Origin: Clostridia bacterium
GTDB taxonomy: Bacteria > Bacillota > Clostridia > Christensenellales > DTU072
Assembly: GCA_045535785.1 (NCBI GenBank)
Contig: JAZSMH010000060.1
Span: forward strand, 66,560-130,559
Reading direction: 5' to 3'
DNA length: 64,000 bases
The notes under the pieces were generated by a model. The model made no database searches and was not told where the DNA came from. It was given only the letters and a program-made list of their open reading frames with translations. This document shows positions 25,830-61,049 of the stretch, piece after piece. The position numbers and the translations under genes were made by a program. How positions within the stretch are numbered: the stretch's first letter is position 1; the number at the start of each line of letters is the position of its first letter.

Positions 25830-25840
25830 AGATACGTTGC

Positions 25841-26400: not shown

Positions 26401-26404
26401 AAGT

Positions 26405-26518: not shown

Positions 26519-26716
26519 GTATTGGTGTATTTTGTATTTTTTTCGTAAAAATTATACGATTGATTTTTTGTTTTTTGCGAAATTATATTGTTATTTTTTC
26601 GCGGTTTTTGGCGAAATCGTATTAATTATTTTTTTGTGATTTATGGGCGTATCGTGATTTTTTTACGCAAAGAAAATTGGTTGATTTGCGTAAAATTATC
26701 TTCATCGTAAAGCAGA

Positions 26717-32932: not shown

Positions 32933-33562
32933 TTACTCTTTGTCGTTATTTACGTTGTTTACAAATATAAGACAATCGCCGTCGGTTACTGTAAAGCTGA
33001 CGCTATTATTTATGCTGATATTACTTATGCCCACGGTGTCGCACCTTGTTAAAGTGAGGTTGTCGTAAGGGTATTTTAGTCCGCTAGAATTGGATACTAC
33101 GACATAGCTAGAATAAGGTAAAACGCTAATGGTGGTGTCTACTTCTACCTTCAAATCTACCCTGCCCGTCTTCCTATAAATAACGTAGCCGTCACTTAAT
33201 ATAAGCCTTGCATTCAAGTTAAGGTCATCGGCAATTTTTAATAAAGACAAATTGGCGTAGACGTGGTCTAGTCTACCGCCTTCCGCTCCATATATATTGA
33301 CGGAAGTATAGCCTTTGTCGCGCGCTACTCTTAATGCAAACTCGCCGTCGGTGAAGTCTTTTTCTACAGGAACGGTGATCAATTCTAGATTGTCTTTATA
33401 TTGATTAAGGTCGATGCTATCAAGGTCGCCTACTACGGTAACTGTAAAAGTGCCGTCGACGAATTTTTTTCCGCCGTCGGCACAAATAACGTGTTTTTCT
33501 TCTATTTTCGTCCTTAAATAGGGCGCGTTAAGCACGATTGCTACGCTTTCTGCGTTTTGCAT
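32933..33562 (-). CDS. thiN: Thiamine diphosphokinase
   Basis: 209 aa. GDLDS motif (VVGDLDSI) and GGRLDH motif, both typical of the TPK family. Confidence 0.8.
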   Translation of the reverse strand: MQNAESVAIVLNAPYLRTKIEEKHVICADGGKKFVDGTFTVTVVGDLDSIDLNQYKDNLELITVPVEKDFTDGEFALRVARDKGYTSVNIYGAEGGRLDHVYANLSLLKIADDLNLNARLILSDGYVIYRKTGRVDLKVEVDTTISVLPYSSYVVVSNSSGLKYPYDNLTLTRCDTVGISNISINNSVSFTVTDGDCLIFVNNVNNDKE

Positions 33563-38850: not shown

Positions 38851-38879
38851 TTGCAAGGAAGAAGAATTTATAGTATAAT
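38851..38879 (+). promoter_or_regulatory. Promoter for the membrane protein-ybaB-recR unit
   Basis: TTGCAA, a 17-nt spacer, then TATAAT. Confidence 0.6.
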
Positions 38880-38922
38880 ATTATACGTATTTTGTACTAA
38901 TAATAAAAGTAGGTGTGAATTT

Positions 38923-39417
38923 ATGAAAAATTCTAAAATATCCAAAAAGACGGCAATTATTATTATCTGTGCGCTTGTACTCGTCGTTATTGGCGGCGTG
39001 CTAGGTGCGGTGCTTGGACATCAGGCGTATTTAGGCAACAAGAAGGCGGAGATAGTTAACTACGCTAGCACTTCTAGCAGTGATTTTTATATGAAAGACA
39101 GCGGTATGCTTTTTTACAAATACGATGCTGAAGATACCGTTGTTAAGGTAAAAGAATTCGTAGAAGTAAGCGAAGGTGCTACCCTTAATATTCTTAACGT
39201 ACTAACCTATGCTAACGGCGAATTAAAAACCACTTCTAACCTAAGCGGTGAACTTAGCGTTGCAAGCGGCGAGAGATATTTCGTTATTACCGAAGTAATA
39301 TCGATGGGTGGTAACAAGAAAAACGGATACGTAATTGAAGTAGCGTCTATTGACAACAACGACAACGTCTTCCCTATGATTGAAGACTTATACAAAGATT
39401 TTATAACTATTGAATAA
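38923..39417 (+). CDS. Membrane-anchored hypothetical protein (164 aa)
   Basis: The ATG at 38923 is preceded by AGGTG. The sequence MKNSKISKKTAIIIICALVLVVIGGVLGAVLG is a single TM. The track's TTG start at 38851 coincides with the -35 box and is unlikely. Confidence 0.7.
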   Translation: MKNSKISKKTAIIIICALVLVVIGGVLGAVLGHQAYLGNKKAEIVNYASTSSSDFYMKDSGMLFYKYDAEDTVVKVKEFVEVSEGATLNILNVLTYANGELKTTSNLSGELSVASGERYFVITEVISMGGNKKNGYVIEVASIDNNDNVFPMIEDLYKDFITIE

Positions 39418-44304: not shown

Positions 44305-44475
44305 ATGGATATGAGAACTGAAAGCACACCCGTAGATAAAAAGCAGGCGGAAAAGCCCGCGGTATACCGCTGTACGAGCTGTGGCGTTACTATGCAAAGC
44401 AACGGCACGCCTAAAGTTTGTCCTAAATGTGACAACGCGCACTTTTTTAAGGTGGATAATACGAAAAAGAATTAG
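44305..44475 (+). CDS. Small zinc-ribbon protein (56 aa), not in the ORF track
   Basis: RBS AAGGAG 8 nt upstream of the ATG. Sequence: MDMRTESTPVDKKQAEKPAVYRCTSCGVTMQSNGTPKVCPKCDNAHFFKVDNTKKN, with CxxC-X15-CxxC. It is divergent from dnaX and its stop overlaps the histidine kinase stop by 4 nt. Confidence 0.6.
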   Translation: MDMRTESTPVDKKQAEKPAVYRCTSCGVTMQSNGTPKVCPKCDNAHFFKVDNTKKN

Positions 44476-45701
44476 CCTTCCTTAAAGACGCAGATGAACT
44501 CGGTGTACTTAGCAACTTCGCTATCTACACCGATTCTACCGTCCATAGAATCTACTATTGCTTTGGCTATGGCTAGACCTAGCCCAAAACTTCCGCCCCC
44601 CGAGTGCGATTCGTCCGCTCTATAGAATCTATCGAAAAGTTTTGGCAATTTTTCTTTTTCTATACCCTCGCCTTCATTGTAGACTCTTAGTATAACTTTA
44701 CGCTTCTCTATCGATAATTTTAGCCTTATTTCTTTGCCAAAAGGCGTGTATTTGATAGCGTTATCTAGTAGTATGTAGACTAATTTTTCTAAATCTTGCT
44801 TTCTACCCTTGACGAAAACGTCTTCTTGTACGTTAGACGTAAGCATTGCGCCCTTTTCAAAGGCAACGGTTTCCGTCTCAAGCACTACGCTTTCTACAAT
44901 GGTAGAAAAGTTAATTCGCTCTAAACTTTGCTTTTCTTTCATACCTTCAACCCTGGCTAAAACGAGCATTTCGTTAATCATTTCGCTCATTCTTTGCGTC
45001 TGGGTAGCAATACCTGAAAGCCATTTTTTTTGTTCTTCCGTCAAATTATCGTAGGAATTAATAATAGAAAGGTTGGTGTTGATTATGGTGAGAGGTGTTT
45101 TTAATTCGTGCGAAGCGTTAGCGACAAGCTCTTTTTGCTTAAAAAACGCGTCCTCGACGGTGGCAAAGCTTTTTCCGTTAAAACGTATTACCAATATAGA
45201 AACGACCAAAATAACGGCAAATGCGGTCATTAAAATGGTGATTACGTTAACCGTGTACGTGGTGTAGTCGTGAGTATAGTCATAGCAACAGACTATTGCG
45301 GTATATGCGCCCGAGCCTACGTTGTCGACCACCTTATAGGCGATATTCTTATCGTCGATTTTTACCTTATCTTCTTGCCTATTCTTGATTACTTCTATTA
45401 GTTGTACGAGAGTTTCTTCACTATAAAACTCCTTATCCGATACTTTGTATCCGCCGTCTTCTCTTAGTGCGATAATAAGTGAGTTACGGTATACTGAATC
45501 GTATTTATCGTCGGGATTGGGCACTCCTTGGTTTTGGAAAAAATCTCTATATGATTCTTCTAGAATTGCTATTTTTTTGTCTACTTCGGTGATCATTCTA
45601 CTGTAAATAAACAAGCCGACGAACGTAAAAACTACCGCCATTACCAAAGCAACGACGGCAATCTGATACAATGCGGCACGTTTTTTTACACGAGAAAGCA
45701 T
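44472..45701 (-). CDS. Sensor histidine kinase (two TM segments, HisKA plus HATPase_c)
   Basis: H-box SHELKTPLT. N/G boxes (LDNAIKYTP, GGSFGLGLAIAK). 409 aa. Confidence 0.9.
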   Translation of the reverse strand: MLSRVKKRAALYQIAVVALVMAVVFTFVGLFIYSRMITEVDKKIAILEESYRDFFQNQGVPNPDDKYDSVYRNSLIIALREDGGYKVSDKEFYSEETLVQLIEVIKNRQEDKVKIDDKNIAYKVVDNVGSGAYTAIVCCYDYTHDYTTYTVNVITILMTAFAVILVVSILVIRFNGKSFATVEDAFFKQKELVANASHELKTPLTIINTNLSIINSYDNLTEEQKKWLSGIATQTQRMSEMINEMLVLARVEGMKEKQSLERINFSTIVESVVLETETVAFEKGAMLTSNVQEDVFVKGRKQDLEKLVYILLDNAIKYTPFGKEIRLKLSIEKRKVILRVYNEGEGIEKEKLPKLFDRFYRADESHSGGGSFGLGLAIAKAIVDSMDGRIGVDSEVAKYTEFICVFKEG

Positions 45702-46372
45702 TATCCCTCCAATTTATACCCTACGCCTCTAACGGTGGCTATGGATACCTTTGATTGTAAGAAGGTCAGTTTTTTGCGCAAAAACGAGATATAGACTTCG
45801 ATATTGTTATACTCTACGTCTGCTTCGTAGCCCCATAGCTTGATGATCAACTCGTCTTTGGTTACTATAAAATTAGGTCTATCTAAAAAATACTTCAAGA
45901 TTTCGCTCTCTTTAAGGGATATTTTTATCCTCTTATCCTTACAAACGAGCTCGAAGTTACTTAAATTAAGGGTTATATCGCCGAAAGTTTTTTCATTGGT
46001 GACTATCGTCTCCGTCTTCCTACGAAGAAGGGCGCGCATACGCGCGAGCAGTTCGCTAGTAGAAAAGGGCTTCGCCATATAGTCGTCTGCGCCTAGATCG
46101 AGTCCACGCACTTTATCGCTAGTTTGGTTACGGGCGGTTAGCATTAATATAGGTGTTGCTACCCCTGCTTCTCTAACCTCTTTTAGCACTTCAAAGCCAT
46201 TTTTACCCGGAAGCATAATATCGAGCAAAATTATATCGTATCTACCCGTAAGTGCTTGGTCAAGTCCGCTGTTACCATCGTAACATGCGTCGACTGAATA
46301 TTTTTCTTTCTTCAATATATGACTTAATGCGTCGGATAGGCTCTTTTCGTCTTCTACTAACAAAACGTTCAT
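45701..46372 (-). CDS. OmpR/PhoB-family response regulator
   Basis: Receiver domain (LLVEDE...DIILLDIMLPG...K) plus a winged-helix output domain (TVRGVGYKL). Its stop overlaps the kinase start by 1 nt. Confidence 0.92.
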   Translation of the reverse strand: MNVLLVEDEKSLSDALSHILKKEKYSVDACYDGNSGLDQALTGRYDIILLDIMLPGKNGFEVLKEVREAGVATPILMLTARNQTSDKVRGLDLGADDYMAKPFSTSELLARMRALLRRKTETIVTNEKTFGDITLNLSNFELVCKDKRIKISLKESEILKYFLDRPNFIVTKDELIIKLWGYEADVEYNNIEVYISFLRKKLTFLQSKVSIATVRGVGYKLEG

Positions 46373-46448: not shown

Positions 46449-46490
46449 AAAAAACAAACTAATAGGGCTTAACGTAATCGGTAAGCCCTA
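46449..46490 (-). terminator. Rho-independent terminator after the 4,800-aa gene
   Basis: Minus sense: tagggctta-N10-taagcccta, followed by ttagtttgtttttt. Confidence 0.75.
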
Positions 46491-46513: not shown

Positions 46514-49500
46514 CTATTTGATAAATTCTACTCCGTAGAAGTTATCTTCAATAGGATCACCGTTCTCATCGACCTTCGGGATAGCGACTCCGTCGACGGT
46601 AATGGTGTAGGTATAGTCGATAGAAGCAGCTTCGCCTAGTACCCATTCACATTCGCCGTAGGAAGCACCCGCGAATAAGCCTGCGTATACCGTTTGTACG
46701 TCGGTAATCGTAATGGTACCCGTTGCTAGACCGTAGCTGAACTTGGGTTGTCCTTGTTCTATTACGCCTGCGTATCCGCCTACGTAAGCGGTACCGCCAC
46801 CGTTAACGGTTATGTCGAGTGCACTTATCGAGTTTTGAATCTTACTGATTTCTTCACCGCTACCGTCTAGTATGATGTCGCCACCGTAGTTAATACCTAC
46901 AAAGCCCGATACGTAAAGCGTGGTGTCGTTAGCTTCAGAAGTGATGTCTACCGAGCCTGCTACGGTTACGTTCTTGATAGTACCACTGTTGTATATAGCT
47001 ATTGCACCGAAGTAGAAGGTTTCGCCAGATTTTACGGTATTTTCGTAGACGATATTCAAGCTGATGTTAGAGATGTTACCGATGTTGTTATAAACAAGAG
47101 GTGCATCTAGTCCGCTCAAGCTTGCGATACTGCTTTCTTCTGCGCTAATGTTGTCGCCACCGCTACCGTTAATGCTACCGCTAAATACTAGTCCTTCGCC
47201 TATCGTGGTGAATTCTGTAAAGGTGATAGACTTGGTAATCGAGTAGTTAGCGTATAGTGCAATGTTGACGTAATTGAAGTCTTCTGCGCTCTCAACAATG
47301 AAAGGTGCATCTGCAGTACCGCTACCTCTTAACGGATAGTAGCCACCGAATACTATGCCGAATGCGTTATCGCCCGAAGCAAAGCTACTACCTCTCATAC
47401 CATCATCAGTGAATTCTACCATCTTGATGCCGTAGCTGTTGGTAGTCGAACCAATGGGCTTAGATTCTAGCACTGCACCATTGTTGTAGGTGTTGTTCTT
47501 GATTGCGTAAACGTTGATTGTCTCAGCTCCAAGCGCACCGCTACCGATAGCAGCGCCTACTACTAAGCTACTTGCGTTACCTTCAACTCTACCTAGTAAG
47601 TAGATAGCGCCGTCGGTTGCCTCGTTGTAGAGATACAAGTCGTTAGCTATACCTACGATACCGCCTGCTACTACTTGGGTACCGTTTACGCTGATGTTAT
47701 TCATACTGAATACGTCGTAAATTCTACCACCGCTTGCAGAGCCTACGATACCGCCTGCATAAACCGCACCGCTAGTTGAAGTAATCTTTTGAGTACCGAT
47801 AAGTACGATATTATTGATAACAGCGTTGTTGTAAATCTTACCTGCGACTAGACCTGCATACAATGCGTTGTCGCCTTCGTAAGTGAAGTCTACTGCAATA
47901 TCGCTGAATACTAGATTGTTTACTTTACCGTTGAGCTGTCCGAACAAGCCGAAGTAGTTACCGTCGAAGGTGTCAACGCTACCTGCGAAGTTACTGAGGA
48001 CTGCGAAGCTGCCGTCTTGAGTATCGAGGCTTCCGTTAAATACCTTATGGATAGCAACGGTTGCATCGTAATCACTCATATCTAGCGTTGTATTAGCGTT
48101 ATTTTGTGACGTAGCGATTACGAAGTGGAGGTTCATATAACCGTCGATAGCCATTAGATGTTCTACCTTGTCGATGATTAGCGGTGAAGCCTCTGTACCT
48201 ATACCGTACGCCGTGTCGGTGCCGTTGTATTGATATCCGAAGTCGCTATACAATCTACCTATGATCACGTCTTCGATAGTGTTGCCTGCTACGGTAGCGT
48301 CGTTACCTACCATGGATGCGTAGTTAACTGCTACTAGACCGTTGATGGTTACTGCTCTGCTTGACGAGGACGCGCCACTTACGGTGTAATCGTTAAGGAA
48401 CGCATTGTTAGCGAAGTAGTTAATGGTAGCGCCGTCGTAGCTAGCTTCATCTGCGTTGCCGTATACGGTACCGATATTTACGCTGTTGTTAACGCCGTAG
48501 ACGGTTACTTCACCGAATACTTGAACGTTGTTGAATTTAGCGCCCTTCTTAACGTAGCCTGCTAGGGTACTTACGTTAGCGTTATTGACGAGCTTGCCGT
48601 TATTGGTGATTCTTACGTCTACGTATACTAGATCGGAATTTTGACCGAGGACTGCTTTTTCGCCGAGCGTACCTGCTAGACCGCCTACGTTGACTTCGTC
48701 TACGGTGGTGCTAACTCCGTCGAGGACGATATCGCCCGTTACGCTTACGTTATGGACTAAGCCGTTGAGGGTGCCTGCAAGTAGACCTACGTTGGTGTTA
48801 GCACTTGCGCTTAGGCTGATCGTCATGACGTCGCTTAACGTTATTGCAAGGTTCTTAACGGTGCCGTCTACTCTCTCGAATACGCTGTGCTTGCCGTTAG
48901 TAATTCCGTTAGCTTCGATAGTAATCGTATGAATTGCTTCACTATAGCCTGTTACGGTAGTGGTTTTTTCTCCATTTTCCGTATTAGTGTTAGTAACTTT
49001 GGTGTAGCCCTCGTTGTCTGCACCGTTTGCGTTGAACGTACCTGTATAGATACCTTCTAGACGCTTATTGATCGTTAGGTCAGCGTTAAGAATGAAGTTA
49101 CTGTCTAGGTAGGTGCTAGGCGTGGGTACTACCATACCGCTAATATCATTACCTTCACCATCCTTCGAGCCTTCGGGATATAAATTGTAGTAATTGTTAT
49201 CTACGTAGTAGAAGTCGGTTTCGTTATTGATTAGGTAGTAAGTGGTTATTTCTTTCTTATCGCTTGATTTTAGTTGTCCGTTTTCTCTTTCTTCGGTTAA
49301 TTGAACGGGTTTAGCAAAGTACTTGATTACGAAGTCTTTGTAGTCCGTTGCGCCATTAACTGAATCTTTACCCGTGATTCTGAAACTACCGTAGGTGCCC
49401 TTATCGTCTGCCGTTGCGTACGTGTATACGTAGTATGCGCCTACTTCGCTAGGAGTATCAATGCCTACCGAGTTGTCACGGTTTAGGTTGGTGTTCTCGT

Positions 49501-52500
49501 TATATCTATGGTATTCGTAACTTAAAGCAACGTTTACGCTCTTAACGGTAGTGCCGTCAGTGTATACGTACGAAGCAATACCAGTGGTAGCCATGCTACC
49601 TTGTGCCGTTTGCTTATAGAATACGTCTTGACCGTCGACGTTGGTGCCACCGTAGTCTACTCTTACTTCTGCAATGAAGTAACCTACCAAGTTGATATGG
49701 TCGTCTATGAATTGTACCTTGAATTTGCCAGTCTTTTCTTCGCCTGCGCAATAAGGCTCATCTGAACCGTCGGGCGAGCCTACGGTGTAACTATGGAAGT
49801 AGTTATAACCGCTGCCGTAGTAACTATGGTCAGTGATAACGTCGTGTTTTGCTACGTAGGTGAGTTCTAATACGTCACCACGGTGGAATTGCGTATCGAA
49901 CGTATCACTAAATTCACCGTTTGCGTCACTTTCTCTAGTTGTATAACTCATAAAGTTATTGGTGTTGATGTCGTAACCGTAATCTTTACCTAGGTATACC
50001 TTACCGTTGTAGGTGTAGCTATATCTGTTAGCGTCAACGAACATTTGATATTCGGACTTTACGTTGTGATAATCTAATACTTCGCTACCTATTTCGCCCT
50101 TAACAACGTGTGATTGAACGGGTGCACTGCCTGTAACGTTCTCAATCGTATTGACGATATTTTGACCGTGGAAGGTGACTGCCGTGTTGGTATTCTTGTG
50201 GTTATCGATGATTTCTGTACCAATGTAGTAATACAAGCCTGCACCAGAGGTGATTCTGAACTTATAGGTATTGCCGTTAATTACGTTCTCGCCGATACCG
50301 CTGAATCTCAATACGTCGCCTGCTACGGGTAGCCATTCGCCTTCGCCGTTAACTTGATATTCGATTTCGTATCCGCTGTAAGGCTCGCTATCAACAAACG
50401 CGTTGTTCTCAACGATACCTACGCCAAGGTTGATTTCCGTTTCGCTAACGTACCAATATTCGATACTGTCGCTGTATAGGTTATCTTCTGCCGACCAGCC
50501 CCAGTTGGTTGCTTTGGTACCGTCGATGCTATTGACGTATACGATAGGCGTGGTGTTGTCTATCCTTGCATATACCGTGGTGCCTGAGCCCTCGGTGCCT
50601 GCGAACGTGTCGATTGCAACGTCCTTTCTCGTTTCGCCATTGTTACCTACGTAGTAGTAACGATAGATGCTCGAACTACCGCTTTGAGTAGCGTTCTTGT
50701 AATCTTCGTAGGTGATTACGTCGAATACTTCTCCGCCGATCTTCAACGTAACGCCACTATAGCCTACGTTACTGATAGTGAAGTTCATTACTACCGAGTT
50801 GTAGTACGTCCAAACTGCGTTAGCGGTAACTACGTAAGAAACGTTGTTCACGTTGTTGTAAGCAGCCTTTAGTTGCTCTTGAATGTCGATAGCCGATTCA
50901 TCGAATACGCTATAGGTAGCTTTACCTGAAGCGATTACGTTAGGCGTGTTGGTGTCTATCTTGATACCGTATATTAGGTCGTCGTTAACGCTTGCGGTAC
51001 CTCTATCGTCTATTCTACCTACCGTGCGGTGTTCACTCTCTATACCTGCGCCCGTCATGGTGAAGTATTCGTAAACTACGTTGTTCGTACTGTCCTCTAA
51101 TTTGTAATTCAACGCGCTTGCGTAGTTAGAGATCATTACGGTTTGGTCATTGGATATACCGTCGTTATAGTAACGTATCTTTCCTTCGATGCTGATGCTA
51201 GAGGATGATCCTGACTGTTGCGTCCACTTACCGCCTTGTTTTACGTATACTCTACCGGTAGGCAATACCATAGTCCATTCGGACCATACGTAGTCACCGT
51301 CAAGATTCTTCGCATACGTACGATAGAAGAACGCGTTACCGCTGATATATGCCGATGGAGAGTCTAGCGTTACCGTCATGGTTACGCTATTGTTAACCCA
51401 CTCGCCATCGGGGATTTCCCAAACGCCGTCAGCGTTGTAATAGCCGTAGAAGTCCTTGTTCGAATCTTTTGCTACGACGTCTAGGGTAGGCTTCGTCTTA
51501 TCTATTGCTATTAGGCTGGATATAACGCGTTTACCAATAGATATTTCTGCATATTGTGCGCCACCTTGATCTGCTGATTCGTAGCTTTCTAGCTCGATTC
51601 TTAACTTGTAATTGATGCTGTCAGGGGATGAGTCGCCTATTTCCGTAGCTCTAGGTATAGAGCTATTCTTGTAACTCTTATATACGTTGAGCTCGGTGTT
51701 TTGTGCGTTAGAGAGCGCTCTAAACATATAGTACTTATATAGGTAAGAAACGCCCTTGCCTACGTAATACTTGATTGTATCGGTATAAAGACCTGTGCTT
51801 GCATTATATACAGGATCACCTATACGCTCGTAATGTCCTAGGTCGAGGTCAAGCTCTGTCCAAGTTCCGTCCAAGCCACCGTTTACGTTCTTCTTGTAAT
51901 TCTCGCTAACGTAGAGGGTATATCCGCTCTTACCGTAGGTTATATCCATGGTTACGTAAGCGTAATCTTGCATCCAATTGATGGTGGATATTCCCGTATC
52001 TTTCAACCAATCGACGGAAGGTGTGCCTTGTGCGTACTTGTTGCCTTCTTTATCGTAAGCAATGATATTGCTTACATTAGCTGATGCGGTATCAACCTTG
52101 GGAATGAACTCCTTCTCGGTGACGTTACCTGCTCTATCGGTTATCTTTATGGTATATTTAATATTCTTATCGAAGTAATATAGCTCTTTGTTACCGTTGT
52201 ACGCTCTATACAAGCCGTCGTCACACTTAACGAGCCATAACGTTACTGTAGATTCGCCGTCTTCACCGGTTATATAAGCATCCTCGTAGTTGATTTGTAC
52301 ATTGTCGATTGTTTCTTTTTCTTTTCCACTATCGCCTATGCCTGACGTGCCGTCGTAAATGCTGATTCTCAACGATTTTGCGAGAGCGTGCCATATATCT
52401 TCGCTAGTAGCAAGCTCTGCAAAGTTACCGCTGTCAAGGTTAATGACGGGTGCGGTTATATCTATGCTAACGATGCTTGACGCATATTCGGATACAGGAC

Positions 52501-55500
52501 GGTTGAACGCCTTCTCGGGTTGATTGTTAGCGGCCTTGATGATATAGGTAAGGTGGGCGTTGGTTTTGGAAACGGGCATCGTAAGTTGTACGGTGCTGCT
52601 GGCAAAATCGTAATCCCAAATCGTACCGACCAATAGGTTGTGATAGATATCGGTTAGGTTAATGCCGGTAGTGACGTTATCGATATACCACGTGCGTGCG
52701 CCACCGTTTACCTTCGCGGTTAGCGTAAACGTATTGTCGCTCGGCCAATCAATGCTGGTAATCTTCGACTCAGTTGTGCCCGTGTTGGTTAGGTAGGTTA
52801 TTCTTACCTTGTTGTTATCGTTCGTGAACGTGGGCACGCGCATGCGTACGCTCGCGTTAACAATATTATCTACGATGCTGTAGTTAGACGAGCTGATAGC
52901 ATTCCACGTCCATTCTACGTCGTAGAAGTTAGTGGGATAGCTACTATGTACGGGTATATCCATATCTTCGCCGTTGATATGGAATTTGTATACTCCGTCA
53001 ACTTCTCTAGTGGTTAACGTTACCATTCCGTTAGTGCCCGTGTATTGTTTGCTCTTGGTGACAGCGCCTACGGTTAAGCTTACGGTATTAGATGCGATAG
53101 TAACCTTTAATACTTCGTTAAGCATAGTATTAAAGACGTTATGTGCAAGTCCTGTCGCTGACGAATCGCTTAACGTAATCGTGTTCGCCTTGAAATCATA
53201 TATCCACGTGGGAGTTAGGTGTGCGCTATATTTGGTATAGCTTACGGGAATGGTAACAGTCTTTTCGTTGTCCTCTACCGAAACTACGCAATAAGCACCG
53301 CTACTGGGGTTGGTTATCGCAAGGGTAACCTTGTTGCCTATAGCGTATACGCCCGTGTCGTAAATTTGTAACTTATCATTGCTATCGTAGTATTCTAGTA
53401 CTACGGTGTTAGTTTCACTAAACGAAACAACGGGGAATAGTAATTCCTTGTTAGTGAAGAGGTTGCCTTTATCGTCGATAACCTCGTAGTCCACGTAGCC
53501 TACTGCATCCGCGCCGTAGCTAATATTCCACTTAGCGTTGTATTTTTGTTGTTCGTATTCGCCGTATTCGGATTGTACCGTTCCTTCTGCGGGCTTAGGA
53601 TAAGTTATGACGATATCTTTTTCTTCAGCGCCCTTAGAAAGTTCTTCTATAACGTTGTTGTATGCGCATATAGTATACGTTACGCTCATATCAGTATTAT
53701 TGCCTACAATAAATTCACAAACTATGTAATTTTTGTCGGGGCATACTACCCAAGTCTTATCCTCAACCTTGGTGCTGTAATAAGCGTAATTAACGGGAGC
53801 TGTGATTAGCTTCTTGCCTTGTACAGCCCAACAGCCGTCTATTACCGTAACGTTCACTAATGCGTCTGCTTTAGGATCGGTAACCACAGGCTTGTTTACG
53901 CCCGTAAACACATCCACGAATCTAGTTCCGTTGTAGAAATTAATTATTATCTCGTTATTATCTGCATATCTAATGCTAGGCGCACGTAGTTCTGCGTACG
54001 TTTCTTCATACTTATCGATAAGCGTGATGATAGCGTTAGCGCCTACTCCGTTGATTTCCCACGTTACGTCGTGGATAGAATTGGGATAGATAGGTGCAGC
54101 GGCAACTCTTGCAGTGGTGATCTTGCCATCGATTGCCCAATAATAAGCATTCTTCTCCGTTCCTTTTTCGCCTGTTCCTAGCTTGGTATTGAGTTTGACT
54201 ATATCGCTAGTTCTCTTATATCCTGTATCAATTTGAATGAAGTCACCCTTATAGTCAAGGTATGACATTATGATATAGCCGTTACCGTCGACGTCAATGA
54301 TAGGAATATCGAGATTGTTGTAGATAATACGTGCGGGACCGGTTTTGCTAGAATCGGTTATTTTTGCCTTATTGCTAGCATAGTCGATGGTGTACGTTGC
54401 CGTACCGAAGCTACTGTAATATTTGGTTGCCACGTTAACTGCGGTGTCTTGACCGTTTATTTGCCATACACCAGCGTTCGCTCTGACGTTAACTTCGTTG
54501 GTCTTTTCTACGTAGGTATCGTATTTTTGAGCGTTACCTAAACTATCTAGATATTCAAGGACGAAGGTGCCGTTCTTACTTATGCTGACTTTAGGTACGT
54601 TAACGCCGTTGACAGTCGAATATTGGTCGATAATACCTTGGAAGTTATTGGTGCGAGTATACGCGATATAGCCGAAGCCACTCGAACCGTACTCTACTCT
54701 CCAAGACATCTTGACGCTGTCGTTGGTATACGCTACCATACTACCGTAGTAGGTCTTGTCAGTGCTTACGTACTTGGTCGTGCTAGATACCTTTACGGGC
54801 GCCGTGTCTATCTTTATGGAATATAAAGTATTCTTAGCACCTATACCCGTTGTTTCGTTCCAAACGTTACCGGAAATATCCCTTGCGTCGATAACGACGT
54901 CCTTGGTAGCGGTAGGAATGAGTAAGCGATAATATACTTCGTCAATATAGCCCTTATAGACGTTCTTCGCCGTCACTTTGGAATATAACAATTTGGTGGT
55001 TAAGCCGTTTAGTCTTACGTAATTGCCATCTTTCTCAACCGTCGGCTCAGCTTCGTTAGAGGTATACACTCTTACGTTGGTGGCGTATCCGTCTACGAAC
55101 CATACGGGAATGCCAGTAACTAGTATCTTTTCTAATTTCGTGCCGTTGTAATCTCCGCCTGAACAAACAACGGTGCTATCGTCAATACCGCTTGCTCCGT
55201 CGGAAAGTTGATAGTAAATATAAACCTTGCCGTTGGTGTAAGCGTCGCCTACGACGTTAGTCCAAATTGTCTGCATATTAGCGTAAGCAATTTCGCCATG
55301 GGTTTCGTCCTCGGTCATAGACGCGCTAGACTCTACCGCAAAGATGGTCATGTTGGAATCAAACTGTACGGGCTCGGAGTCGATGAATATACTTCCTAGA
55401 TCTATGAGGTAATATCTACCTACGCCCGATACTGCAAGAAGATATAATCTCTTCTTAAGAGAGGTCATGCTAATTCTTATAGACGCAATGCTTTCTGTAT

Positions 55501-58500
55501 CGTTAATACTGTTAGCATTGCTACTTTGGTATGCGATAGCGCCCGGTACAAATACTTTGTTGACGTAATATCCCCAGCCGTTAGCTGCGTAATCAAAGTT
55601 ATTTTCAACAAATTTGCCCATAACGAAGTCGTCAAAAGGACTGCAAAGCCCGATCACAGACTTATCTTTGTTCGCTTCATCCCAATCGACTTCTTTTAGA
55701 TACATCTTCACACCGGATATACCAGTGGTGAAATTAATGGTTAAATCGATATCCGTCTTTGTTGTCGCCTCACCCTTCATGACGTTGACGTTCTTACCGT
55801 ACTTACTCACGGTGGTAGGCGTAGTATACGTTTTGGTAGCACTACCTTCTGTCCACGTTATGGGTTGTAGCTTACTCTCTACGTCAACGGTGTCTACCAC
55901 GGGGAATAGCTTGAAGCCGTTCTTGTCTACATCTACGTAGGATCCGTCGGTTGCGTTATCCATATTGTCTTTTACCGTGAAGTTAAAGCTTGCCTGGCCA
56001 GTCTTAGCAGTAAGTCCCCACGATTTACCGTCGTAGACGTACATTCTCTCGCTCTTATCCTTCTCAGAATGGACGTAATCTTCTACTAGCCTACATACGC
56101 TGTCGTTAACCTTGAAGCCCTCGGTTACGTGTGCGCCTGAGCCCATGGTGTAACCTTCTAATTGCTTTACGTATTCACCATCACTGCCTACTATGTAATT
56201 GCCGTTTTCGTCGGTTACGTATCTATAATATGCCTGCCTGTCCGAAACGATGAAGTAAGCGTATAGGTTCTGCGTAGCCCAAACGAAGGGATCCGTTTGT
56301 CCCGTTACGAACGAACTGCTGTTATTCTTATCCAAAGTAAACGTGTAGTTATCGCCGTTTAATTTTGCGTCGAATGCAAGTTGTGAATTGTTTATCGTCG
56401 TTTCGTTAGGATTGTCGGCGAAGAACACCTTGGTCAATTCGGGTGCGGTAGTATCCTGTTTTAGTATGAAATAATAGTCGTTCGATCCCGTCGTCTTCGA
56501 TAATACGGTATCAACGCTAGCGCCTGCTTTGTTGGTTATCTGAACGCCAAGTTTTATATCTTTTGACTCTTTCGCATAAAAAACTACCCAGCCTATGCTC
56601 TTGTTATCTCTAAAGTCGGATACCGTCCAATCAAAATTAACCGTACCGTTAGGAACGCTAGGATAGTCTACTCTATTACCTTGTCCCCAAGTAATAACAG
56701 GTTCACTCAACGATTGTTTAACTTCAATCTCCATAATTACGTTGCTCATAGTCCACTCGGCGGTATGTACGAAGCCGTCATCATAAACGCCCCACGACTG
56801 GTCTTGCGTAAGACCGGGTAGCGTGGACGAATGTAGGAAGGGCTGAACGCCGTAACTTCCCATAGTGGATGCCGAACCAGATCCCGGTAACGAAGATGTG
56901 GTCATATCAGAAGGGAACGTATAGAAAGAGAGATCTGCATACGTCGGGAAAGGATCTACGTAGTAACGTAGTACGTAACTTGAACTGAACGTCGTACCAC
57001 TCGAATTGGTAGTATAAATAGCATTATCGCTATTATCTAAGCCTTTTCTTAGGTTAGCGTCTTTGTTAGCTGCAAAGGCTACGTTCGTGGAGCCATACGT
57101 TCTCGTATTGCCTAAGAAGTCTCTTATTGCTACCGAATAGTCTAGGAAGGTGCCGGTACTTACGTCCCAAATATTTCTCTTCTTGCCCTCTGTTTCCGTA
57201 GTTTTGAAGCCAGAGCAATTACCTTCGGTCTCTAGTCTGTTTCTATCGAATAGGCGAACTACTACGTAGTAGTAATTACCTAATTTTTGCACGTATCCGT
57301 GTTCATAATAGGTATAGGTACCTTTAGCACCAACGTATCTAAACGCGAACACGAAGCTACTTTCTCTAAATACCTCTACTTTGTCAGGATCATCTGCGAA
57401 TACCTCGGTGAGAATACCTTTTGAATACGTCTTGGGATTACCTAATTCGTCTAGAATTTCTGCATCTGCACTTTGGGTAAGTTCTTCACCCGCTTTGTCG
57501 TACTTTCCGTCGATGCCGTAATATTTTTCGTGAGCGCCAGTCTTGTCGTTAGCTGAACCGGGGGTTAAATCATTACCGTCTACCGCTATACCGGAATAGT
57601 TGTCTGCGACTTTGAATAAAGCCCAGTATTCTTTGCTATTCTCAATATTATACCACGTTCCATCCGTTAATACGGTCTCTTGAGTGAGCTTACTGGTAGC
57701 ATTTCCTGAAGAATCAACGTACGTATTGATATTATCCTTCGTTACGTTCCCTGGAGCGAAGCCCATCAACGTGAACGTCTCGGGAGCGGAAACGTCAATT
57801 TGAGTCGTTATCGTTATTTCTTCCGTTGATACGTTTTCTTTGTTCTTAAAGCTCATCGTGTAAGTGTTGCGCGCGTCTACGCCATCTACATTGATGGTTT
57901 CCGTATGTACTTTATACGTAGTGTTGACGTCCAACGTTTGCGTACTTAAACCACTTGATTGTGAGCCGTATATCGAGTCTGAGTCAGTAACGTTGTTTAC
58001 AGTGGTTGGCTTTATCGTTGTATCCGATGCATTTCTAGCGTACGGATCAATAGTACTCAAAGAAATATTAGTACCATTCATTTTAAGGGTGGGATCACCA
58101 CCGCTACAGCCGTAAACGTAGTGTATGATGAACTGTTGAGATTCGTGATCGTTCGACCATGGGAATACGTATGATAGAGAGGTACTATCGTACCCGTTGG
58201 TTGATGCTATAACCGTCCCATCCTTATCGGTTACGATAACCTGCGGTGTATAATAGTCTTTGATTACGTAGTACTCGAATTTGTAACCGCTTAACGTCTT
58301 ATCTTGGCTAACGTAGTAGTCATAGCTCTTATCGCTAGCATTGGCACAATTAGCGTCGTTTACCTTCGGATCCGAGAACGTATACGAATTGTCCGCATAC
58401 GATCTCGTACTGCGTGTAGCGTAACTGTCTGTTGTACCCGAAGCGGTATGCTTGGTGCCGTCGGAAACGTTACCACACTTATCGATAGCTACGATATACA

Positions 58501-60916
58501 GAGCGTTACTACCCTCTACGTTACTTGCTTTGTCGTACGGTAAAGTAATTCTTATAGACAGTTCGGTACATATCGTCGAGCCCGTTACGTCATAGACGCC
58601 TTCACACTTCTTACTACCTACGTAGAAGGTTACTTTTTGAGACGAGGTCTTACCACTGCTCGTATATACAAGTATCTTTTCAATTCCTGAACCGTTGTTG
58701 TACTCTCCTTTGTCAACGTAATAATAAGGCTTGGTATCTACTTCTTGTTTATCGTCAGGTTTGAGCCTGTTATTATAGGTAAGATCTCTAACGGTGAGCG
58801 TGAATGCAACGTCGTTGTATCTGTTACCCGCTTTGTAACTGTCGTTGGAGGTACTTATACCGTATTCATCGGTAATTTTTACCTCGGGCGCAACGGTATC
58901 TATGCTATATGGCATTTTGCTGGGAATACCACTCGCTAAATCGGTAAGGTCTCCACCAAATATGTTAAACACGTTACCTGCATTGTCGGTTACGTCTATA
59001 GCTAAGCTGTCTAGAATATCTACGTCGTAAGGAAGATCGAAAGTGTAGGTATTAAGCTTATATATACCTGCGCCATCAGTCTTTTCGGTACCTGCCGAAA
59101 CGCCTTTGCCTACAGACAAGGTGTGTGTTTTGCCATTATTAGTCATGGTTACGACAAAGCTTTTAACTCCCGCTTTGTAATAACCGTCGGTAACTTTAAT
59201 AGCGTCGCCTACTTGGTCCTTGATGCTTATTGAAACACGTAGCGGTGCGTCCGTCCACTTGGTAGTATCATCTGCCGTAAAGTCATTACCAGTCCTAGAA
59301 ACCGTCATTGAGCTTGATAACGTGCCGTTAGCATATTCCGGTATCGAAATATCGGTAAAATAGTAACTTCCTACACTCGTCGTTTTTCCTACGTTACCTG
59401 CATAATCGGTAATCTCAACGTCATATTTTCCGTTGAGATAATTTTTCTCGGTTGTTTTTACACTGTAATATGCGTATACATAACCGGTCCCTCTTGAAGA
59501 AGCAACATTTGGAGCCGTAAACGAATAGTTTTGCGTAACGTTCTTAATTACTACCTTAGTTACGTAGGTGTAAGTACCGTTATAGGTACTGCTGTCCGGA
59601 TCGTTACATTTAACTCTAATCGTTACGTCACCGTTATATGCAGCATCTACCGTGTCATTCATGATTTTGCCACTCGCGCTTCTATCTAGAGTTGTATTGC
59701 TTTTATCTAACGAGTCCGTTTTTATGAACGCAATTTCCGAATACGCTGGTGGCTGGTTATCTATTTTTAATGCTGTAGCGTTACGCGCCGTTGCGGAATT
59801 TGTTCCCGTAAGCGCTGATTTGGCCGTCAACGTTACCCCACCATAGGTTGTATACGCGGATGAGGTGTAAGACACTGCATTAATATTGTTGAAAGGTATA
59901 TTCACTTGGGCACTTGTTGCCGAAGTATAGTAAGTTCCCGTCATGGAATTCAATCCATAATTTGCAGAGGCATAGTACTTGACGGATCTCGAAGGCTTGT
60001 AAGGATCCGATGGATCCACCCAAGTGGAACCGTTAAGATTTCCACACGATACCGTAGAGGGAGTGCCTGATTCGTTAGTCTTAAGTGTAAGTGTCGGGCT
60101 ACTGATCGATACGGAAGCGGTGGCCGTTTTGTCGCAACCACTCTGAGAAGCTGATGCGCTGGCAGTTATAGTGTAGGTATAGTCTCCGCTAAACGAAAGA
60201 CTACCACCTCCTGTATGTGTCGCACTGCTTATCAAACCAGCACCTATTAATTTACCCCACGTGCTATCATAGGAAAACTTGAACTTACTGTAGCAAGTGG
60301 TCGAAACAGAAGGATCTTTGCCAGTCTGACTAGCCGAATTAGAAGCGGATTTACCGCTAAACGTTCTTTCTTTAGCGCAACCAGTATAGTCCTTGCCAAA
60401 TTCTTGCGTTTCATCATAGCCAGCATCAGCTGCTTTCATTGCGTTATTTACAGCTTGCTCTTCATTAAGGGGAACTGGTACACTTTCGGTATCATCATTA
60501 ATTATTACCATGGATATGACAGTACTACTATCGCCGAAAACATCGACCGTGCCGTCTTCGAACCAAACTTTGAGTCTGCCGTCGGGAAGATTGTCGCAAG
60601 CGACTGCTTCTTTAGTCGCCATCGCTAAAGTTAAACGCGCATTCTCTACGTTCTCGTCGTTCTTTACGTTATTGACCACCGTTTCAAACGTAGTATCCGT
60701 AGCGTCTTGATTTTGCGTTGCTAAACTCTCCTCGTAGCGTAAGTTATCCGAAGTATTCTTATCGGTGATGAGGGTGCAACCTAACATCATAAAGATCGCT
60801 ACCGCCACAATGAAGATCAGTAAGGGTATATCCCTATAACTGCGCTTCTTGTGCGTAGAAGTGATAGCGTTATTCTCCTTGCTTATTTCGGTAATATTCT
60901 TAGTAACGTCGGTCAT
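46514..60916 (-). CDS. Giant surface protein (4,800 aa): N-terminal lipobox/TM anchor, many Ig-like modules, C-terminal GLUG-motif beta-helix-like array
   Basis: Single uninterrupted 14.4-kb ORF. N-terminus: ...KKRSYRDIPLLIFIVAVAIFMMLGC. Recurrent 'ID.t.P.v ... D.aGN' signatures occur (IDTVAPEVKI, DVTDNAGNV, DTTAPELTKV, ITDRAGNVTE, IDNTTPIVYV). The last ~900 aa carry repeated GLUG-like units (FGLFGQLNGKVNNL..., AGGIVGSASG, VGGLAGTLG, GSGTADAPFIVESAEDF). Confidence 0.9.
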   Translation of the reverse strand: MTDVTKNITEISKENNAITSTHKKRSYRDIPLLIFIVAVAIFMMLGCTLITDKNTSDNLRYEESLATQNQDATDTTFETVVNNVKNDENVENARLTLAMATKEAVACDNLPDGRLKVWFEDGTVDVFGDSSTVISMVIINDDTESVPVPLNEEQAVNNAMKAADAGYDETQEFGKDYTGCAKERTFSGKSASNSASQTGKDPSVSTTCYSKFKFSYDSTWGKLIGAGLISSATHTGGGSLSFSGDYTYTITASASASQSGCDKTATASVSISSPTLTLKTNESGTPSTVSCGNLNGSTWVDPSDPYKPSRSVKYYASANYGLNSMTGTYYTSATSAQVNIPFNNINAVSYTSSAYTTYGGVTLTAKSALTGTNSATARNATALKIDNQPPAYSEIAFIKTDSLDKSNTTLDRSASGKIMNDTVDAAYNGDVTIRVKCNDPDSSTYNGTYTYVTKVVIKNVTQNYSFTAPNVASSRGTGYVYAYYSVKTTEKNYLNGKYDVEITDYAGNVGKTTSVGSYYFTDISIPEYANGTLSSSMTVSRTGNDFTADDTTKWTDAPLRVSISIKDQVGDAIKVTDGYYKAGVKSFVVTMTNNGKTHTLSVGKGVSAGTEKTDGAGIYKLNTYTFDLPYDVDILDSLAIDVTDNAGNVFNIFGGDLTDLASGIPSKMPYSIDTVAPEVKITDEYGISTSNDSYKAGNRYNDVAFTLTVRDLTYNNRLKPDDKQEVDTKPYYYVDKGEYNNGSGIEKILVYTSSGKTSSQKVTFYVGSKKCEGVYDVTGSTICTELSIRITLPYDKASNVEGSNALYIVAIDKCGNVSDGTKHTASGTTDSYATRSTRSYADNSYTFSDPKVNDANCANASDKSYDYYVSQDKTLSGYKFEYYVIKDYYTPQVIVTDKDGTVIASTNGYDSTSLSYVFPWSNDHESQQFIIHYVYGCSGGDPTLKMNGTNISLSTIDPYARNASDTTIKPTTVNNVTDSDSIYGSQSSGLSTQTLDVNTTYKVHTETINVDGVDARNTYTMSFKNKENVSTEEITITTQIDVSAPETFTLMGFAPGNVTKDNINTYVDSSGNATSKLTQETVLTDGTWYNIENSKEYWALFKVADNYSGIAVDGNDLTPGSANDKTGAHEKYYGIDGKYDKAGEELTQSADAEILDELGNPKTYSKGILTEVFADDPDKVEVFRESSFVFAFRYVGAKGTYTYYEHGYVQKLGNYYYVVVRLFDRNRLETEGNCSGFKTTETEGKKRNIWDVSTGTFLDYSVAIRDFLGNTRTYGSTNVAFAANKDANLRKGLDNSDNAIYTTNSSGTTFSSSYVLRYYVDPFPTYADLSFYTFPSDMTTSSLPGSGSASTMGSYGVQPFLHSSTLPGLTQDQSWGVYDDGFVHTAEWTMSNVIMEIEVKQSLSEPVITWGQGNRVDYPSVPNGTVNFDWTVSDFRDNKSIGWVVFYAKESKDIKLGVQITNKAGASVDTVLSKTTGSNDYYFILKQDTTAPELTKVFFADNPNETTINNSQLAFDAKLNGDNYTFTLDKNNSSSFVTGQTDPFVWATQNLYAYFIVSDRQAYYRYVTDENGNYIVGSDGEYVKQLEGYTMGSGAHVTEGFKVNDSVCRLVEDYVHSEKDKSERMYVYDGKSWGLTAKTGQASFNFTVKDNMDNATDGSYVDVDKNGFKLFPVVDTVDVESKLQPITWTEGSATKTYTTPTTVSKYGKNVNVMKGEATTKTDIDLTINFTTGISGVKMYLKEVDWDEANKDKSVIGLCSPFDDFVMGKFVENNFDYAANGWGYYVNKVFVPGAIAYQSSNANSINDTESIASIRISMTSLKKRLYLLAVSGVGRYYLIDLGSIFIDSEPVQFDSNMTIFAVESSASMTEDETHGEIAYANMQTIWTNVVGDAYTNGKVYIYYQLSDGASGIDDSTVVCSGGDYNGTKLEKILVTGIPVWFVDGYATNVRVYTSNEAEPTVEKDGNYVRLNGLTTKLLYSKVTAKNVYKGYIDEVYYRLLIPTATKDVVIDARDISGNVWNETTGIGAKNTLYSIKIDTAPVKVSSTTKYVSTDKTYYGSMVAYTNDSVKMSWRVEYGSSGFGYIAYTRTNNFQGIIDQYSTVNGVNVPKVSISKNGTFVLEYLDSLGNAQKYDTYVEKTNEVNVRANAGVWQINGQDTAVNVATKYYSSFGTATYTIDYASNKAKITDSSKTGPARIIYNNLDIPIIDVDGNGYIIMSYLDYKGDFIQIDTGYKRTSDIVKLNTKLGTGEKGTEKNAYYWAIDGKITTARVAAAPIYPNSIHDVTWEINGVGANAIITLIDKYEETYAELRAPSIRYADNNEIIINFYNGTRFVDVFTGVNKPVVTDPKADALVNVTVIDGCWAVQGKKLITAPVNYAYYSTKVEDKTWVVCPDKNYIVCEFIVGNNTDMSVTYTICAYNNVIEELSKGAEEKDIVITYPKPAEGTVQSEYGEYEQQKYNAKWNISYGADAVGYVDYEVIDDKGNLFTNKELLFPVVSFSETNTVVLEYYDSNDKLQIYDTGVYAIGNKVTLAITNPSSGAYCVVSVEDNEKTVTIPVSYTKYSAHLTPTWIYDFKANTITLSDSSATGLAHNVFNTMLNEVLKVTIASNTVSLTVGAVTKSKQYTGTNGMVTLTTREVDGVYKFHINGEDMDIPVHSSYPTNFYDVEWTWNAISSSNYSIVDNIVNASVRMRVPTFTNDNNKVRITYLTNTGTTESKITSIDWPSDNTFTLTAKVNGGARTWYIDNVTTGINLTDIYHNLLVGTIWDYDFASSTVQLTMPVSKTNAHLTYIIKAANNQPEKAFNRPVSEYASSIVSIDITAPVINLDSGNFAELATSEDIWHALAKSLRISIYDGTSGIGDSGKEKETIDNVQINYEDAYITGEDGESTVTLWLVKCDDGLYRAYNGNKELYYFDKNIKYTIKITDRAGNVTEKEFIPKVDTASANVSNIIAYDKEGNKYAQGTPSVDWLKDTGISTINWMQDYAYVTMDITYGKSGYTLYVSENYKKNVNGGLDGTWTELDLDLGHYERIGDPVYNASTGLYTDTIKYYVGKGVSYLYKYYMFRALSNAQNTELNVYKSYKNSSIPRATEIGDSSPDSINYKLRIELESYESADQGGAQYAEISIGKRVISSLIAIDKTKPTLDVVAKDSNKDFYGYYNADGVWEIPDGEWVNNSVTMTVTLDSPSAYISGNAFFYRTYAKNLDGDYVWSEWTMVLPTGRVYVKQGGKWTQQSGSSSSISIEGKIRYYNDGISNDQTVMISNYASALNYKLEDSTNNVVYEYFTMTGAGIESEHRTVGRIDDRGTASVNDDLIYGIKIDTNTPNVIASGKATYSVFDESAIDIQEQLKAAYNNVNNVSYVVTANAVWTYYNSVVMNFTISNVGYSGVTLKIGGEVFDVITYEDYKNATQSGSSSIYRYYYVGNNGETRKDVAIDTFAGTEGSGTTVYARIDNTTPIVYVNSIDGTKATNWGWSAEDNLYSDSIEYWYVSETEINLGVGIVENNAFVDSEPYSGYEIEYQVNGEGEWLPVAGDVLRFSGIGENVINGNTYKFRITSGAGLYYYIGTEIIDNHKNTNTAVTFHGQNIVNTIENVTGSAPVQSHVVKGEIGSEVLDYHNVKSEYQMFVDANRYSYTYNGKVYLGKDYGYDINTNNFMSYTTRESDANGEFSDTFDTQFHRGDVLELTYVAKHDVITDHSYYGSGYNYFHSYTVGSPDGSDEPYCAGEEKTGKFKVQFIDDHINLVGYFIAEVRVDYGGTNVDGQDVFYKQTAQGSMATTGIASYVYTDGTTVKSVNVALSYEYHRYNENTNLNRDNSVGIDTPSEVGAYYVYTYATADDKGTYGSFRITGKDSVNGATDYKDFVIKYFAKPVQLTEERENGQLKSSDKKEITTYYLINNETDFYYVDNNYYNLYPEGSKDGEGNDISGMVVPTPSTYLDSNFILNADLTINKRLEGIYTGTFNANGADNEGYTKVTNTNTENGEKTTTVTGYSEAIHTITIEANGITNGKHSVFERVDGTVKNLAITLSDVMTISLSASANTNVGLLAGTLNGLVHNVSVTGDIVLDGVSTTVDEVNVGGLAGTLGEKAVLGQNSDLVYVDVRITNNGKLVNNANVSTLAGYVKKGAKFNNVQVFGEVTVYGVNNSVNIGTVYGNADEASYDGATINYFANNAFLNDYTVSGASSSSRAVTINGLVAVNYASMVGNDATVAGNTIEDVIIGRLYSDFGYQYNGTDTAYGIGTEASPLIIDKVEHLMAIDGYMNLHFVIATSQNNANTTLDMSDYDATVAIHKVFNGSLDTQDGSFAVLSNFAGSVDTFDGNYFGLFGQLNGKVNNLVFSDIAVDFTYEGDNALYAGLVAGKIYNNAVINNIVLIGTQKITSTSGAVYAGGIVGSASGGRIYDVFSMNNISVNGTQVVAGGIVGIANDLYLYNEATDGAIYLLGRVEGNASSLVVGAAIGSGALGAETINVYAIKNNTYNNGAVLESKPIGSTTNSYGIKMVEFTDDGMRGSSFASGDNAFGIVFGGYYPLRGSGTADAPFIVESAEDFNYVNIALYANYSITKSITFTEFTTIGEGLVFSGSINGSGGDNISAEESSIASLSGLDAPLVYNNIGNISNISLNIVYENTVKSGETFYFGAIAIYNSGTIKNVTVAGSVDITSEANDTTLYVSGFVGINYGGDIILDGSGEEISKIQNSISALDITVNGGGTAYVGGYAGVIEQGQPKFSYGLATGTITITDVQTVYAGLFAGASYGECEWVLGEAASIDYTYTITVDGVAIPKVDENGDPIEDNFYGVEFIK

Positions 60917-61020
60917 GGTTCAGTCCGTCCTTTAAAATAATTTCGATATTCGTGTTGTGTGGCGTATTCGTGTACGCTCACGCGCGTGTAGCACGCTAAA
61001 TGTTATACTTATATAGTATA

Positions 61021-61049
61021 ATATTAACCCACGTACGAGAAGTTGTCAA
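61021..61049 (-). promoter_or_regulatory. Promoter of the 4,800-aa gene
   Basis: Minus sense: TTGACA, a 17-nt spacer, then TAATAT. It leaves a 5' UTR of about 95 nt. Confidence 0.6.

Follow-up and report, generated by a model that had tools for sequence, protein, structure and literature searches.

In Gram-positive bacteria, fibrillar adhesins mostly carry their adhesive domain at the N-terminus and their anchor at the C-terminus (PMC8286594). In Apilactobacillus kunkeei, the extracellular proteins Giant1-5 (3,000-8,000 aa) are poorly annotated, have elongated predicted structures and carry a beta-solenoid end domain, which in Giant1-4 is N-terminal and resembles the solenoid of serine-rich repeat proteins (PMC12863079). 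In the IgA1 metalloproteases, NTD2 is a non-catalytic gating beta-helix of ~316 residues (PMC9637739). Here, a 64,000-nt stretch of chromosome from an uncultured Clostridia bacterium of Christensenellales type, of gut or rumen (the window), was analysed, in which one open reading frame (ORF) of 4,800 codons on the minus strand (46514-60916) encodes a giant protein. This giant is probably a fibrillar, adhesin-like surface protein, with a predicted architecture of an N-terminal membrane anchor and a C-terminal head.

The giant shares a predicted stalk of tandem beta-sandwiches, a distinct distal domain and fast sequence evolution with fibrillar adhesins such as Salmonella SiiE, the Marinomonas ice-binding RTX adhesin and the staphylococcal LPXTG adhesins. 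Unlike these it has no LPXTG, no features of RTX proteins or of the type I secretion system and no Pfam stalk or adhesive domain, its gene sits in a syntenic slot of the core genome instead of a variable island, and its polarity is the reverse of that of the Gram-positive fibrillar adhesins, with a predicted N-terminal transmembrane (TM) helix and a C-terminal head. The A. kunkeei giants are alike by description, as very large extracellular proteins of Bacillota with a beta-solenoid end, whereas the solenoid predicted here is C-terminal and of GLUG type rather than N-terminal as in Giant1-4, and the hosts belong to unrelated lineages. The predicted head units resemble IgA1 metalloprotease NTD2 (S. 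pneumoniae 6xja, G. haemolysans 7uvk) and B. ovatus BACOVA_03286 (3n6z) in forming a right-handed beta-helix, and have GGxxG-type turns, as in GLUG-motif beta-helix domains; the TM-score against 3n6z is just 0.42. In contrast to the IgA1 proteases, the giant lacks the M26 catalytic domain, and its 4,000-aa stalk is followed at the C-terminus by three predicted tandem helices.

The gene and its family

The giant coding sequence runs without interruption from ATG to TAG, as the original prediction had stated, and specifies an acidic protein of 524 kDa (pI 4.6) in which T, S, V, G, N and Y are abundant. From its base composition one stop per ~17 codons is expected, giving a probability of ~1e-125 that 4,800 codons stay open. 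The other two frames of the minus strand contain 365 and 458 stops over the same region, and the longest ORF in any other frame is at most 108 aa. The exact protein is present in public collections (P0001) from a 140-kb NCBI contig, and a strain contig (L082; Logan SRR24653631) corresponds to window positions 48094-42449 at 97.4% nucleotide identity. All of the giant's last 526 codons are open in this strain, and the amino acid identity of 96%, together with a ratio of non-synonymous to synonymous polymorphism (pN/pS) of 0.21, indicates purifying selection. Internal similarities were confined to ~97-aa units (aa ~2060-2800) and three related C-terminal units of ~300 aa; the protein is otherwise almost non-repetitive at the sequence level, so repeat collapse is not a concern. 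The 4,800-residue ORF is a real coding gene.

All features of the giant given below lie on the minus strand. A sigma-70-type promoter-like site (TTGACA-17-TAATAT, 61021-61049), the top-scoring match in the 16 kb scanned, stands just beyond the terminator (61108-61090) in which the upstream ksgA gene ends, and a Shine-Dalgarno-like AAGGA (60928-60932), read from the sequence, is located 11 nt ahead of the ATG at 60916. An intrinsic-terminator-like hairpin and T-run (approximately 46449-46490) follows the gene, with a 9-bp G+C-rich stem (TAGGGCTTA/TAAGCCCTA) and a 10-nt loop, which was the sole reason that the scanner overlooked it. A strong hairpin and T-run was found 3' of every orthologue examined (L084, L085, L086, L087 and L088), and a TTGACA box also 5' of those in L084 and L087, which lends support to monocistronic transcription. 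The promoter and terminator originally proposed for the gene were thus both recovered, and the giant gene is probably monocistronic.

An exhaustive HMMER (phmmer) search with aa 3701-4800 against 1.84 billion cluster representatives yielded 64 matches at E<=1e-3, 39 of them at E<=1e-30. The family of the giant comprises ~40 cluster representatives, most of 3,300-4,700 aa, whose last ~800 residues are 33-57% identical. When the full giant was compared with 31 long members by BLAST, most were colinear over 50-100% of its length. The closest relative, P0002 (4,600 aa), covers the entire giant at ~36% identity, which climbs from 23-30% in the first 1,800 aa through 42-52% (aa 2801-3800) to 62-66% over the last 400. 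Full-length variants recur in independent assemblies, on contigs of up to 1.1 Mb. The eight members looked up had no source name on record, and Pfam matched none of the four full-length members at the loci inspected. The middle section had originally been described as matching nothing that could be named; this held for the curated libraries, which were silent, and did not hold for the protein as a whole, which has ~40 colinear relatives. These data make the giant a member of a new family that lacks annotation and falls in the known class of giant, fibrillar surface proteins.

A reading of the giant as an orphan was dropped. A word-indexed search of 5.8 billion proteins had returned nothing for aa 3601-4800 or aa 1-1200 and three fragments for aa 4471-4800, and these blanks were false negatives, the exhaustive HMMER search having found the family in the same collection. 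Every giant relative was missed in this way, and for very long proteins a word-indexed result of no homologues should not be relied on. No relative was detected when species-representative genomes and JGI metagenomes were scanned for peptide patterns of the giant, and a PDB sequence search with the giant alone produced nothing significant. Tile matches below cutoff were noise (Big_13, 11.9 and 10 bits; DUF7619, 20.5 against 27), and no known Pfam stalk or adhesive domain was detected in the giant at E<=0.1. The protein could not be classed as an RTX, type I-secreted giant adhesin: Pfam gave no match to HemolysinCabind or related families in the giant, and the organism is of Clostridia type.

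Predicted head, stalk and anchor

The head (aa 3996-4800) is predicted to be made up of three GLUG-type right-handed beta-helices of ~270-290 residues each, similar to NTD2 of the IgA1 proteases. The AlphaFold2 model of aa 3921-4800, built with 23 family sequences, had a mean predicted local distance difference test score (pLDDT) of 83.9 and a predicted template modelling score (pTM) of 0.82, with 552 residues at pLDDT >=90, and consisted of a disordered linker followed by three all-beta blocks parted by short helical caps. Unit 1 (aa 3996-4236; 48209-48931) was modelled mostly at pLDDT >90. Unit 2 (aa 4237-4529; 47330-48208) and unit 3 (aa 4530-4800; 46517-47329) open with the cap motifs GIGTEASPLII and GSGTADAPFIV respectively, both of the form G-x-G-T-x3-P-(L/F)-I-(I/V), and aa 4008-4084 resemble aa 4320-4394. 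Unit 3 is the most conserved part of the family, with 62-66% identity to P0002, and the best-conserved 300 aa of the giant are 4477-4776. The C-terminal array originally placed at nt 46570-49070 corresponds to this conserved three-domain head (nt 46517-48931).

When the head model was compared with the PDB by Foldseek, the top match was 3n6z (E 9.8e-4, prob 1.0, TMt 0.42), followed by IgA1 proteases from S. pneumoniae and G. haemolysans (6xja, 7uvk and 6xjb; prob 0.96-0.99). The N-terminal beta-helix of IgA1 proteases was the only high-probability PDB group, and in the viral structure library BFVD the top match was annotated 'putative IgA1 protease' (E 4e-6). Sequence matches outside the giant family were also obtained for aa ~4230-4480, the stretch of unit 2 (phmmer; P0043 at E=1.4e-11, others at 1e-8 to 1e-3). 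Seven of ten such outgroup proteins contain Pfam Glug, six at or above cutoff, and outgroup GLUG proteins often also carry SLH, Big_3 or Flg_new domains. In the giant itself Pfam Glug (PF07581) reached 11.9 bits against a gathering threshold of 20.5 (E 0.32), in tiles and at aa ~4040-4064 only, and it matched none of ten C-terminal fragments of the family. The naming of these units as GLUG-type therefore holds for their fold and for distant homology, as judged from Foldseek and from homology to GLUG-annotated proteins, and was not borne out by the Pfam profile. Neither HExxH nor HxxEH occurs anywhere in the 4,800 residues and Pfam gave no match to Peptidase_M26; the absence of HExxH and of an M26 domain shows that the giant is not an IgA1 protease.

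The C-terminal part of the stalk (part 2, aa 2801-3925; 49142-52516) is a chain of tandem beta-sandwich, Ig/FN3-like domains at the fold level. Its AlphaFold2 model, built with 18 family sequences, was almost all beta, with a mean pLDDT of 78.8 and a pTM of 0.49, a low value that is expected for independent beads. The breaks between modelled domains fall at family-invariant (I/V)DxxxP junctions at aa 2819, 2942, 3139, 3321 and 3453. A Foldseek search with the model returned 238 matches in the PDB at E<=1e-3, virtually all of them tandem Ig/FN3-like chains, among them the Aureispira grappling-hook protein GhpA, SiiE (2yn5, TMt 0.44), the ice-binding adhesin extender (6xi3), the S-layer proteins SbsC and HPI, DSCAM and complement MG domains. 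The Ig-like modules that had been suggested for the body of the protein were thus recovered as folds in this part, and both motif types on which the suggestion drew, DxTxP and DxxGN, recur along the body.

Stalk part 1 (aa 385-2060; 54737-59764) was delimited by motif maps and contains the same (I/V)DxxxP junctions and DxxGN motifs, which are also present in the family consensus. It is followed by an expansion of ~97-aa units (aa 2061-2800; 52517-54736), detected by tile BLAST and phmmer, within which a super-repeat relates aa 2062-2331 to aa 2453-2715. The repeat array at aa ~2100-2700 aligns only to P0002 and is thus a lineage-specific expansion. We infer that aa 385-2800 are built like stalk part 2, and the stalk would then hold an estimated ~25-30 beta-sandwich domains at 120-250 aa each. 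Ahead of stalk part 1 lies a membrane-proximal Ser/Thr-rich region (aa 52-384; 59765-60763), the least conserved part of the giant, which aligns in just 3-4 relatives and is 24-25% identical to P0002; serine and threonine make up 32% of aa 201-400, in agreement with the N-terminal Ser/Thr-rich region first noted. Stalk part 2 is followed by a low-confidence linker (aa 3926-3995; 48932-49141) that contains a window-specific insertion ahead of the head, with pLDDT <50 for model residues 1-73 and 36% gap columns against P0002 in aa 3801-4000. One relative, P0004 (4,687 aa), carries a Cys-rich repeat insertion of ~700 aa (CDxCGxC ... H.D) between stalk and head, which is missing from the window protein and from the other members inspected.

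At the N-terminus a predicted cytoplasmic tail (aa 1-29; 60830-60916), ending in the basic cluster KKRSYRD, precedes a predicted signal-anchor TM helix (aa 30-51; 60764-60829; IPLLIFIVAVAIFMMLGCTLIT) with a Kyte-Doolittle (KD) hydropathy of 2.9, which includes MMLG-C47 and is the sole hydrophobic segment in the whole protein. The basic stretch and hydrophobic helix that had been described were therefore both present. All 34 full-length relatives have a hydrophobic helix of 20-29 residues within their first ~90 residues, with basic residues ahead of it. A juxtamembrane motif KKRxxxD directly before the helix (aa ~22-29 of the window protein; 60830-60850) was conserved in the closer relatives (N-termini of P0004-P0010). 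The C-terminus of the giant has no TM or other hydrophobic segment and no LPXTG, and matches to LPx[TSA][GAN] are internal only (aa 1343 and 3529), so that the protein does not appear to be a sortase-anchored surface protein. The anchor is thus predicted to be N-terminal, as had been proposed. The feature conserved in the family is a helix of TM length with positive charges on its N-terminal side, which was read as an N-in/C-out signal-anchor.

Taken together, these features suggest how the protein may be arranged at the cell surface. The short basic tail would remain in the cytoplasm and the 22-residue hydrophobic helix would act as an uncleaved Sec signal-anchor that tethers the giant in the cytoplasmic membrane. 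About 3,900 residues would form a beads-on-a-string stalk of beta-sandwich modules, lengthened in this lineage by tandem expansion of the ~97-aa unit, and would carry at the distal C-terminal end three consecutive beta-helices of ~270-290 residues of the GLUG/IgA1-protease-NTD2 type. As the most conserved part of the protein, the head, in which no catalytic motif is recognised, would probably bind a conserved ligand, which could be a glycan or a protein on the host, on other cells or in its own envelope. The adjacent two-component system may regulate the giant or respond to it.

Chromosomal setting

The window represents bacterial chromosome dense in housekeeping genes, including those for ValRS, Hsp33, GroEL, TsaD, a release factor, SecA, GlyRS, RecR, DnaX, KsgA, TatD and the C-terminus of MetRS. 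Its SecA is at most 74% identical to that of any of 185,579 species-representative genomes, and the best matches were metagenome-assembled genomes of uncultured Clostridia, Christensenellales and Christensenellaceae from rumen and from human and animal gut. Contigs of the same species were reached in independent samples by exact look-up of the giant's neighbour genes.

Downstream of the giant, on the same strand, Pfam identified two conserved neighbours, an OmpR/PhoB-type response regulator (RR; 45701-46372) and a histidine kinase (HK; 44472-45701) with two TM helices around an outside loop of ~110 aa. The RR reached no equivalog cutoff in NCBIfam, which gave no specific name to the two-component system. 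RR orthologues 67-83% identical were found beside the giant in L084, L085, L087 and L088; across the compared loci HK orthologues were 40-53% identical and the giant 27-36% where it could be aligned. In the P0002 locus the order is that of the window: ksgA, giant, RR (223 aa), HK (409 aa), a small ORF and dnaX. P0036, among the most distant members, has metG, tatD, a radical-SAM gene, ksgA, giant, a kinase-like gene, RR and HK; in the P0019 locus the upstream gene is another one and giant, RR and HK are kept; P0012 has metG, tatD, ksgA and giant without RR and HK; and L085 has giant, RR, HK, dnaX and an M1 peptidase gene. These comparisons mark the giant as a vertically inherited, fast-evolving core gene, and a functional link between the giant and the two-component system may be proposed. 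In L085 (L085:2-1827; ENA ERZ16268178) the C-terminus of the giant is split into ORFs of 210 aa and 398 aa that overlap by 4 nt, which reflects either a frameshift (pseudogene) or an assembly error.

A second giant ORF (10217-20917, minus strand; 3,566 aa) contains four stretches that match Pfam MBG_3 and one YDG domain near its C-terminus. A signal/TM segment is present at its N-terminus and, at the C-terminus, a TM anchor and basic tail. Paralogy of the 4,800-aa giant with this protein was rejected, as there was no BLAST match and phmmer gave marginal ones only. Together the two giants make up 39% of the window. The second giant is followed by an ORF of 571 aa (8489-10204, minus strand) with no Pfam, NCBIfam or PHROGs match. 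A low-GC stretch (~23200-26600; GC 0.318 at 24-26 kb) with ORFs at 23251-24084, 24567-25097 and 25057-25530, none with a Pfam or PHROGs match, adjoins tRNA-Gln (25841-25914, plus strand) and tRNA-Arg (26442-26518, minus strand) and may be a short piece of foreign DNA that has inserted at a tRNA. Three further ORFs of 514, 547 and 188 aa (1719-3263 and 33528-35171, both minus strand, and 38851-39417, plus strand) had no significant Pfam match; the first two also had no NCBIfam match, and the third had no PHROGs match.

Alternative readings and significance

Several points weigh against the reading of the giant as an adhesin-like fibril. No Pfam or NCBIfam family reached threshold anywhere in the giant, neither with the whole protein at E<=0.1 nor with ten 560-aa tiles, so that profile support for GLUG or Ig-like modules, whose absence the original prediction had named as grounds for rejecting it, did not come from these libraries; the fold assignments were rescued by structure prediction and transitive homology. 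The structure prediction and Foldseek comparison that had been recommended as a check did yield beta-sandwiches (aa 2801-3925) and GLUG-type beta-helices (aa 3921-4800). The models covered 2,005 of the 4,800 residues and drew on alignments of 19-24 sequences; in its N-terminal half the stalk was assigned from motifs. A profile of six family members found no solved structure by sequence. The N-terminal helix may be cleaved by signal peptidase I or II, and ligand binding by the head is pure inference. The tip of many adhesins varies more than any other part, and a tip that is, as here, the most conserved part is explained no worse by a structural or self-directed role than by adhesion to a host.

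Such a structural role, with the giant as a core S-layer-like or wall-spanning scaffold of the envelope and its head docked to the cell's own wall polymers or to neighbouring copies, is unlikely but has some observations in its favour. Relatives with as little as 49-67% identity in KsgA still keep the slot beside ksgA, conservation is highest in the head, SbsC and HPI are among the Foldseek matches of the stalk, and the outgroup proteins combine GLUG repeats with SLH domains. However, in the giant Pfam detected neither SLH nor any other domain that binds the wall, a single-copy, membrane-tethered chain of 524 kDa would be an odd lattice subunit, and the fast divergence of the stalk (23-30% identity) is like that of exposed fibrils. 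A more elaborate proposal, also rather improbable, is that the giant, more than an ordinary niche adhesin, forms a lineage-defining envelope organelle of Christensenellales-type gut bacteria, a fibril of an estimated ~100 nm with a conserved triple beta-helix tip. The two-component system, which has remained its neighbour despite deep divergence, would then sense or control the state of the fibril (contact, tension or loss), and the IgA1-protease NTD2 type of the head would make a host immunoglobulin or mucin a conceivable ligand.

The lipobox anchor at MMLGC given in the original prediction was not supported by comparison with the family. Under that reading signal peptidase II would cut before Cys47 and the giant would be held by a diacylglyceryl-Cys, and M-L-G-C47, with its Cys near the end of the hydrophobic span, does fit a permissive lipobox. 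The strict box [LVI][ASTVI][GAS]C fails owing to the Met at position -3, and Cys47 is preceded by a hydrophobic span of 17-22 residues and an N-region of 29 residues, a placement outside the usual geometry of lipoprotein signals that counts against a lipoprotein. The spans of 20-29 residues in the family are TM-like. A Cys near the end of the helix was found in only three of 34 full-length relatives and is absent from the other 31, including P0002, while the helix is kept in all 34; with the Met at -3 and the long span, this favours a transmembrane signal-anchor and makes a lipoprotein improbable.

There is a similarly low probability that the head is an enzyme (a protease, or a lyase or hydrolase of polysaccharides) displayed away from the cell by the stalk. 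Parallel beta-helices are frequent scaffolds of glycan-degrading enzymes, and GH55, PL6, pectate lyases and phage tailspikes did appear among the Foldseek matches of the head, but these enzymatic beta-helices and tailspikes, and autotransporters, had probabilities of 0.01-0.25 (all <=0.25), against 0.96-1.0 for the non-catalytic helix of IgA1-protease NTD2 type. The protein has neither of the two motifs sought, HExxH and HxxEH, and no enzyme family in Pfam or NCBIfam matched it. That the gene is an artefact of assembly, chimeric or collapsed, or is decaying and open by chance, is scarcely credible: the source is a metagenome-type assembly and the L085 relative is split, but an open frame of ~1e-125 chance, almost non-repetitive sequence, purifying selection between strains and full-length colinear relatives in many independent assemblies all stand against it.

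The reading of the giant as a fibrillar, adhesin-like surface protein remains the probable one, and two features distinguish its family: a polarity that is the reverse of that of the usual Gram-positive adhesin, and a core-like position beside a conserved two-component system. The family is overlooked entirely by the curated libraries and by word-indexed search, a warning that searches which rely on domain annotation count too few fibrillar surface proteins. The head (aa 3996-4800) provides a concrete target for binding studies. Clostridia of the Christensenellales type are widespread, mostly uncultured bacteria of gut and rumen, in which contact with the host or with other cells is a little-known question.

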